A DNA stretch of 595 bases from Escherichia coli (GTDB lineage Bacteria > Pseudomonadota > Gammaproteobacteria > Enterobacterales > Enterobacteriaceae): the NCBI RefSeq assembly GCF_003334255.1, contig NZ_QOWU01000217.1; one strand, 5' to 3'. The number at the start of each line of letters is the position of its first letter. Positions within the stretch are counted from its first letter, which is position 1. The notes under the pieces are model-generated. The model was not told the DNA's origin, made no database searches, and saw only the letters and a program-made list of their open reading frames with translations. Positions 1 through 595 of this stretch are shown here, piece by piece. Position numbers and translations under genes: made by a program.

Positions 1-68
1 AATCCGCTCCGTATACCGTGAGAGTGACATCGTACCGGGAGAACAGACAGCCATCAGCATACTGAAGC

Positions 69-90
69 AGCGCACAAAAAATATTGCGCT
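69..90. repeat. Inverted repeat AGCGCA / TGCGCT with a 10-nt A-rich spacer (CAAAAAATAT)
   Basis: Read directly: 69-74 AGCGCA is the reverse complement of 85-90 TGCGCT. Could form a stem-loop in RNA or be a protein-binding dyad. Function unknown. Confidence 0.35.
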
Positions 91-157
91 TCCACTTCAC
101 GTCCACCAGCAACAGCCCCCACCCCAGGAAAAGACGTTAGTAAGCATCGCCGTTGAT

Positions 158-170
158 CCGGAGTCTCCGG
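158..170. repeat. Inverted repeat CCGGAG-T-CTCCGG (6-bp arms, 1-nt centre)
   Basis: Read directly: 158-163 CCGGAG is the reverse complement of 165-170 CTCCGG. Lies about 40 bp upstream of ATG 209. No T-tract follows, so it is not an intrinsic terminator. Confidence 0.5.
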
Positions 171-200
171 CTCAGTACCTCCAGCGCCAGAAACCACAAC

Positions 201-208
201 GGGAAGAG
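201..208 (+). promoter_or_regulatory. Putative ribosome-binding site for the DUF1364 gene
   Basis: Purine-rich GGGAAGAG directly upstream of ATG 209. Spacing is short (about 4 nt from the GGGA core) and the match to the AGGAGG consensus is imperfect. Confidence 0.4.
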
Positions 209-478
209 ATGCCTGTATACACGCGCTGGGTAAAAACGCAGAAATGCATGACGTGCGGTAATCAGGCAGATGATCCGCATCACATCATTGGTCATGGACT
301 GGGAGGGATGGGAACAAAGGCTGACGATTTGTTTGTTATTCCGTTGTGCCGTAAATGCCATAACAAACTACATGCCGGAGTAAAAGATTTTGAAGAAAAA
401 CACGGCAGTCAGCTGTTGTTGCTGATTCGTTTTTTAATGCACGCGAGAAATTCGGGTGTTCTGAAGTGGAAAGCATAA
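209..478 (+). CDS. DUF1364-family (YbcO/NinX-like) small Cys/His-rich phage protein, putative zinc-binding HNH-like nuclease; 89 aa, complete if the ATG at 209 is the true start
   Basis: ORF-track ORF ATG 209 to TAA 476-478. Translation has CxxC (C13,C16), DPHHI (H24,H25), a Gly-rich GHGLGGMGTK segment and LCRKCHNKLH (C47,C50,H51,H55). From memory this resembles E. coli DLP12 YbcO (GTKPPD / IACSACH region), which sits immediately upstream of rusA in that prophage. Purine-rich GGGAAGAG at 201-208 is a possible Shine-Dalgarno. Start is uncertain because the frame is open upstream to position 2. Confidence 0.75.
   Translation: MPVYTRWVKTQKCMTCGNQADDPHHIIGHGLGGMGTKADDLFVIPLCRKCHNKLHAGVKDFEEKHGSQLLLLIRFLMHARNSGVLKWKA
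466..473 (+). promoter_or_regulatory. Putative ribosome-binding site for rusA, embedded in the 3' end of the upstream CDS
   Basis: Purine-rich GTGGAAAG with a GGA core about 8 nt upstream of ATG 479. Together with the TAA-ATG abutment this is consistent with translational coupling. Confidence 0.4.
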
Positions 479-595
479 ATGACCGAACGCATAGAATTTG
501 TTTTGCCTTACCCGCCGACGGTGAACACTTACTGGCGACGCCGTGGCAGCACATATTTTGTATCAAAAGCCGGGGAGCGTTATCGCCGGGCAGTG
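479..595 (+). CDS. rusA: RusA-family crossover junction endodeoxyribonuclease (Holliday junction resolvase), N-terminal 39 codons only; continues beyond the 3' window edge
   Basis: ATG at 479-481 immediately after the TAA of the upstream gene. Translation MTERIEFVLPYPPTVNTYWRRRGSTYFVSKAGERYRRAV matches the recalled N-terminal pattern of E. coli RusA (LPWPPSNNRYYRHNRG...VSAEGQAYRDNV): the LP-aromatic-PP-x-x-N, Y-aromatic-R-x-x-RG, VS, G-x-x-YR and V positions coincide. Not in the ORF track because it is truncated by the window end. Confidence 0.85.
   Translation, partial: MTERIEFVLPYPPTVNTYWRRRGSTYFVSKAGERYRRAV

Follow-up and report, generated by a model that had tools for sequence, protein, structure and literature searches.

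A C-terminal His-Me finger (HNH) domain predicted in a DUF968/YdfU-family prophage protein encoded next to rusA in Escherichia coli

A 595-nucleotide stretch of Escherichia coli prophage DNA (contig NZ_QOWU01000217.1; "the window" below is this whole analysed stretch) encodes on its + strand, at positions 245 to 373, the translation CMTCGNQADDPHHIIGHGLGGMGTKADDLFVIPLCRKCHNKLH. The segment combines a C-x2-C pair, an HH dyad and a C-x2-C-H-x3-H tail, which raises the question of which protein carries this Cys/His arrangement and whether that protein is a nuclease. The original prediction assigned it to a free-standing DUF1364 (YbcO-like) protein of 89 residues with an HNH-like, zinc-stabilized motif. 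The arrangement itself is exact in the translation. The regular expression C..C.{5,12}HH.{15,30}C..CH...H is matched once by the protein and by 0 of 200,000 shuffles of its residues; the expectation calculated analytically is ∼7e-8. The reading favored here, with a probability of roughly 0.8, is that window positions 146 to 475 encode a nuclease domain of the His-Me finger (HNH, beta-beta-alpha-metal) type at the C terminus of a 352-residue prophage protein of the YdfU family, with predicted zinc-binding and catalytic roles for the motif residues.

Gene boundaries and family

On the + strand, frame 2 has no stop codon between window base 2 and the TAA at 476 to 478. In the RefSeq record NZ_CP116067.1 this frame is part of a 352-codon coding sequence (locus L001, 7420 to 8478; WP_021565037.1, "DUF968 domain-containing protein") whose start codon lies 581 nt upstream of the window. 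Window positions 2 to 478 (+) thus hold the last 158 codons and the stop of a ydfU-family (DUF968) gene, as indicated by the open frame, the RefSeq coding sequence, Pfam and PHROG. The 89-residue open reading frame is the last quarter of this coding sequence, which runs on through the left window edge, and its ATG at 209 to 211 (+) is the internal Met264 codon within an open and homologous upstream frame. Met264 is unconserved: the nearest cluster representative (P0002) has Arg at this position, and the consensus of the family has Trp. Full-length homologues usually have 320 to 370 residues, and some database entries of ∼100 residues span the nuclease domain alone. The residue numbers counted earlier from that ATG (C13, C16, H24, H25, C47, C50, H51 and H55) are correct for that start and are converted by adding 263; in true numbering, the motif residues are C276, C279, H287, H288, D303, C310, C313, H314 and H318.

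The full protein matches PF06147 (DUF968) with an E value of 4.9e-62 over residues 160 to 344, covering model positions 1 to 169 of 171, and the same profile is matched by 43/43 aligned homologues. PHROG 96 ("HNH endonuclease") is matched end to end at 1.5e-161. The window translation alone matches DUF968 over its residues 2 to 150 (E = 8.4e-50) and PHROG 96 over residues 2 to 155 (E = 3e-66). Phages of Escherichia, Klebsiella, Salmonella, Citrobacter and Vibrio contribute 175 records with full-length relatives, which carry the annotation YdfU family or HNH endonuclease. PF07102 (DUF1364/YbcO) gives no match at an E value of ≤10 with the window translation, the full protein or the isolated domain, while YbcO as the positive control scores 8.9e-43; among 43 family members, none reaches ≤0.001 and 6 reach ≤0.1. 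Judged by these profiles, the protein is a member of the DUF968/YdfU family, a sister of DUF1364 in the His-Me finger group, and the DUF1364 label is not upheld. The label is wrong only narrowly, because a 2017 classification of the His-Me finger superfamily unites DUF968 and DUF1364 in its group 7 and names RusA and Q as neighbors (PMC5714182). A zinc-finger HNH motif at the DUF968 C terminus has also been described (PMC4118853).

Profiles of HNH enzymes agree with this placement. HNHc_6 (PF16784) is matched with an E value of 1.7e-6 over model positions 119 to 184 of 204 and, in a further search, with one of 1e-7; the Pfam HNH and HNH_5 profiles are matched weakly. Profile searches thus bear out the HNH half of the original prediction and not its PF07102 half. 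The Ref profile PF16786 is not matched by the window protein and is matched by 1/43 homologues at ≤0.001 and 9/43 at ≤0.1. NCBIfam gives no match for the full protein and a lone subthreshold IscB match for the 89-residue piece (E = 0.01, 15 bits against a cutoff of 175). PADLOC returns 0 matches, which leaves a defense-system role without support.

The TAA of the ydfU-family gene (476 to 478, +) directly abuts the ATG of a gene for a RusA-family Holliday junction resolvase, of which the first 39 codons lie in the window (479 to 595, +). This gene is identified by its translation and the RefSeq annotation, and the full RusA protein matches the NCBIfam RusA model at 5.7e-22. The contiguous stop and start codons (TAAATG, 476 to 481) are compatible with translational coupling of the two genes. 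Further open reading frames of at least 20 codons in the window comprise four antisense frames and two in other sense frames. Neither window strand contains an Rfam family or a promoter-like site. A weak terminator-like hairpin with a T run lies at 403 to 433 on the + strand, inside the gene and ∼45 nt before its stop; it has 7 pairs, 3 of them G-C, and the terminator scan yields 2 overlapping sites against 0.7 ± 0.8 expected. The hairpin is probably a chance occurrence. Thirteen complete E. coli genomes contain lambdoid prophage DNA with 100% identity to the 595-base window, and homologous sequence occurs in 3268 of 5426 complete E. coli genomes (∼60%).

Predicted fold and conserved residues

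AlphaFold models the full-length protein, from 64 aligned sequences, with a mean pLDDT of 89.9 and the isolated domain of residues 255 to 352, from 43 sequences, with a pLDDT of 94.0 and a pTM of 0.83. The sole segment with a pLDDT of <50 in the full-length model is a flexible Pro/Gln-rich linker at residues 226 to 240 (window 95 to 139, +), a gap-rich and variable stretch of the alignment, which joins the N-terminal and middle part to the nuclease domain. The C-terminal domain (residues ∼243 to 352; window 146 to 475, +) consists of a conserved RPK...WVK lead-in helix, a beta-beta-alpha core and two further helices. DSSP assigns strands at 285 to 288 and 306 to 309 and a helix at 311 to 319 in both models. 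In the models, residues 285 to 319 form the beta-beta-alpha core of the His-Me finger/HNH superfamily. An HNH-like fold is present in the predicted structures, as the original prediction had expected.

Homing and packaging enzymes are not among the closest structures to the predicted domain, which are Ref and YbcO. Further structural matches are Cap5, McrA, ScoMcrA, the GVE2 HNH enzyme, TagI, the Cas9 HNH domain and the Gme HNH enzyme; the full-length model returns the same list. A Foldseek search with the full-length model gave only E values of >1. Sequence and profile searches of PDB chains find 3g27 alone, with E values of 0.7 to 1.3, and sequence similarity to any solved structure is accordingly weak. 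Comparison of the domain profile by hhalign gives probabilities of 95% (E = 3e-8) for Gp16 of the Staphylococcus aureus phage phiNM1, 81% for YbcO and 75% for Ref.

Conservation was taken over ∼40 to 60 homologues with identities down to 25 to 30%. The first C-x2-C (C276 and C279; window 245 to 256, +) provides the predicted structural zinc ligands 1 and 2. C276 is invariant in alignment A3, C279 is Cys in 47/63 sequences, and the pair aligns with C145/C148 of Gp16 and C96/C99 of Ref. The first strand (D285 to H288; window 272 to 283, +) ends in the HH dyad, where H287 is His in 52/60 and H288 in 52/61 sequences; H288 aligns with H32 of YbcO, H157 of Gp16 and H113 of Ref. The second strand and the helix (window 335 to 376, +) carry C310, C313, H314 and H318, and this segment aligns with C181, H184, H185 and H189 of Gp16. 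C310 is Cys in 49/57, H314 is His in 51/57, and H318 is His in 50/56 sequences. Position 313 is Cys in 20/57 and His in 27/57 sequences, and the window allele has Cys as this fourth ligand (window 356 to 358). In a minority of the family (e.g., with PLSHDAH or PIRTDEH), the second and third zinc ligands are absent while the catalytic histidines are kept.

The most conserved residue of the nuclease domain is D303 (window 326 to 328, +), which is Asp in 57/59 sequences and invariant in A3. The usual Asn position, 5 residues before the Cys, holds no Asn, as was recognized from the start; the segment TKADD leaves no gap in the motif but contains D303 as its second Asp, 7 residues before C310. Read from the sequences, an Asp 7 residues before the third zinc ligand is also found in YbcO (D47) and Gp16 (D174).

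The N-terminal domain (residues 1 to 160; L001, 7420 to 7900) has a conserved Cys/His motif of its own, with the consensus CQ...LCWH(H/C)DN. C93 is Cys in 50/53 and C118 in 49/50 sequences, and the motif lies on a predicted hairpin (105 to 110 and 113 to 118) followed by a helix (119 to 125). It may form a second zinc site. Pfam gives no match for the N-terminal 169 residues, and the N-terminal domain has no convincing match in the PDB. The idea that this hairpin and helix are a diverged copy of the C-terminal HNH unit is unsupported (BLASTP E = 0.09; hhalign, 4%). The N-terminal ∼150 to 230 residues of the family also occur in longer proteins with other C termini (P0147, 598 residues; P0176, 582 residues; P0177, 807 residues; P0146 and P0155), which makes this domain appear an independent module.

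Related proteins and predicted chemistry

YdfU from the Qin prophage of E. coli K-12 shows 77% identity with the protein over 348 ungapped residues and agrees with it in full-length architecture and in its Pfam and PHROG matches. The two differ in the fourth zinc ligand, which is Cys in the window protein (CRKCH) and His in K-12 YdfU (CRKHH). At the DNA level, identity to K-12 ydfU (L006, 3256 to 4305, - strand) is ∼73 to 93% over the first 660 nt of the gene and falls to ∼55 to 75% from window position 80 to 140 onward (∼85% to ∼60%). The diverged allele of the nuclease domain suggests mosaic exchange within the gene.

Three characterized or structurally solved proteins share the domain core. 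YbcO of the DLP12 prophage (PF07102; PDB 3g27), for which a nuclease function was predicted (PMC4999995), is a single-domain protein of 96 residues compared to 352 here. It shares the core HI..G.GTK..DL...C..CH with the window protein (13/30 residues) and differs in having AH instead of HH, no H-x3-H (CHDEID) and a first zinc knuckle of C-x7-C. Ref of phage P1 (PF16786; PDB 3plw) is a RecA-dependent HNH nuclease that cuts DNA in vitro and contains two Zn ions, one of them bound by three His residues and a sulfate in the active site (PMC3973344). Where the window protein has a folded 240-residue N-terminal part (pLDDT of ∼90), Ref begins with a DNA-binding tail that is basic and disordered, and where the YdfU family has D303, Ref has a His (H123). 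H153, the third His ligand of Ref, is located further downstream and is equivalent to H131 of colicin E9 (PMC3973344).

Gp16 of phiNM1 (HNHc_6, PF16784) shows 35% identity in the HNH domain, and the Pfam cross-matches between it and the window protein are reciprocal. Gp16 matches HNHc_6 positions 2 to 204 at 5.7e-117, compared to positions 119 to 184 of 204 for the window protein. C279, H288, C310, H314 and H318 correspond to C148, H157, C181, H185 and H189 of Gp16, and C313 corresponds to H184. Gp16 is a nickase on plasmid DNA in vitro and binds RecA (PMC12817073). The mutations C148A, C181A and H184A abolish its toxicity, H185A and H189A relieve growth inhibition partially, and H157A leaves it unrelieved (PMC12817073). 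Profiles of the N-terminal and middle parts show no similarity by hhalign to lambda Orf/NinB, YbcN or Gp16, and the Orf-like N-terminal domain of Gram-positive DUF968/HNHc_6 proteins is for that reason undetectable here. The NinG/Rap branch-specific endonuclease of lambda is likewise the product of a zinc-finger HNH-type gene located in the nin region, with the replication genes on one side and Q on the other (PMC4118853). Its motif is of the T4 endonuclease VII-like form CxxC...H...N...CxxCN, and comparison of the domain with NinG gives 5.8% by hhalign, with nothing detectable past the first CxxC.

From these alignments, C276, C279, C310 and C313 are predicted to hold a structural zinc that would staple the beta-hairpin to the helix, the inferred site being C4 here and C3H in half of the family. 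H288, which closes strand 1, would be the general base that activates water; this role is assigned from its alignment with the His of YbcO reported to superimpose on catalytic His residues (PMC4999995). The catalytic divalent metal would be held at the scissile phosphate by the two helix histidines, H314 and H318, possibly with H287 as a third ligand, giving a three-His arrangement like that of the colicin DNases and P1 Ref. D303 is likely the stand-in for the Asn of the H-N-H motif, whose structural place it would fill. Suspended by the Pro/Gln linker from the N-terminal part, the nuclease domain would nick or cut DNA intermediates of phage recombination or replication, in a role analogous to that of lambda Rap by position and to those of P1 Ref and phiNM1 Gp16 by domain type. 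By this analogy, the protein is most likely a nickase or endonuclease that depends on a metal and acts on such intermediates; a nuclease activity of the window protein would be extrapolated from relatives that share only a core of ∼65 residues with it. The catalytic assignment is insecure, since H157A, the counterpart of H288, is neutral in Gp16 and H185A and H189A have partial effects (PMC12817073).

The same Gp16 data lend themselves to another explanation, in which the domain is a noncatalytic zinc-finger module that uses the HNH scaffold for binding DNA or protein, for instance in the recruitment of RusA or RecA, without cutting DNA: zinc-finger mutants of Gp16 are null, and mutants of its "catalytic" histidines are partly defective or neutral (PMC12817073). 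The PdcB-like members of the family (P1 pdcB, L004, 2905 to 3948; P0190, P0204 and P0228) form a subgroup that points the same way. These proteins keep the four Cys residues and the Asp and have lost HH, H314 and H318, as in the sequence CQSCQRDIE of PdcB; they are probably catalytically dead HNH proteins, judging by these residues, and indicate that the scaffold can persist without catalysis. P1 encodes both PdcB and Ref, the latter being the closest structural match. The window protein, on the other hand, keeps every catalytic His, the ∼87 to 90% conservation of these positions across the family speaks for selection on catalysis, and both Gp16 and Ref cut DNA in vitro (PMC12817073, PMC3973344). 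A purely binding role is therefore considered improbable for the window protein, although it is the strongest of the competing explanations.

Gene neighborhood and significance

The ydfU-family gene lies in a nin-like region of the early-right operon and is followed by rusA and then by a gene for a Q-type antiterminator, so that the phage recombination context proposed for the motif is borne out by a phage region holding rusA. Of 7 loci inspected, 5 have rusA either directly next to the gene or separated from it by one gene (the window locus, mEp390, Stx2a_WGPS2, Citrobacter phage Chris1 and Vibrio phage Pm34). The exceptions are Qin, where ydfU lies just upstream of a Q homologue, and Vibrio phage Her. 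The position between the replication/nin genes and Q is fixed in phages of E. coli, Citrobacter, Klebsiella and Vibrio and is far from the terminase genes. Lambda Rap/NinG and YbcO occupy the same map position, and ybcO in DLP12 is likewise found upstream of rusA.

This fixed position bears on the possibility that the gene encodes an HNH enzyme of another kind, either a selfish homing endonuclease or a packaging protein associated with terminase, of the HK97 gp74 type. Phage HNH genes are often mobile or linked to packaging (PMC12817073, PMC12315714), and the C-terminal part of the gene has diverged from the K-12 ydfU allele. Against this stand the constant location away from the terminase genes, the conserved N-terminal part of 240 residues that is also carried and the resemblance of the domain to Ref and YbcO among solved structures, and such an origin is very unlikely. 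Least credible of all, to the point of being negligible, is the free-standing 89-residue YbcO-like protein starting at ATG 209: YbcO is a stand-alone protein of the same map position with a common H..GxGTKxxDL...CxxCH core, and some ∼100-residue entries consist of the domain only, but PF07102 fails to match where the YbcO control succeeds, the open upstream frame matches DUF968 and PHROG 96, and homologues are longer as a rule, with an unconserved Met264.

The preferred reading, a nuclease domain at the C terminus of a 352-residue YdfU-family protein, can be extended to a more specific and doubtful proposal, namely, that the YdfU-type proteins of lambdoid phages are Ref-like, RecA-guided nickases that make or process D-loops and junctions, which the cotranslated RusA would resolve, with the N-terminal domain as a new targeting module. 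Only three points lie behind it: Ref as the closest fold, the interaction of Gp16 with RecA and the adjacent rusA. A dependence on RecA, as in Ref and Gp16, is possible by analogy.

The HNH/His-Me finger nature of the family, its kinship with YbcO/DUF1364 and its RusA/Q neighborhood were published between 2014 and 2017, and RefSeq already annotates DUF968. The main gain for this locus is one of correction: the family is DUF968 and not DUF1364, the gene boundaries are those of a 352-residue protein, and a near-invariant Asp probably takes the place of the "missing Asn". For the biology of E. coli prophages, the work on Gp16 and Ref suggests, by analogy, that this very common prophage gene may have a RecA-linked nickase function.
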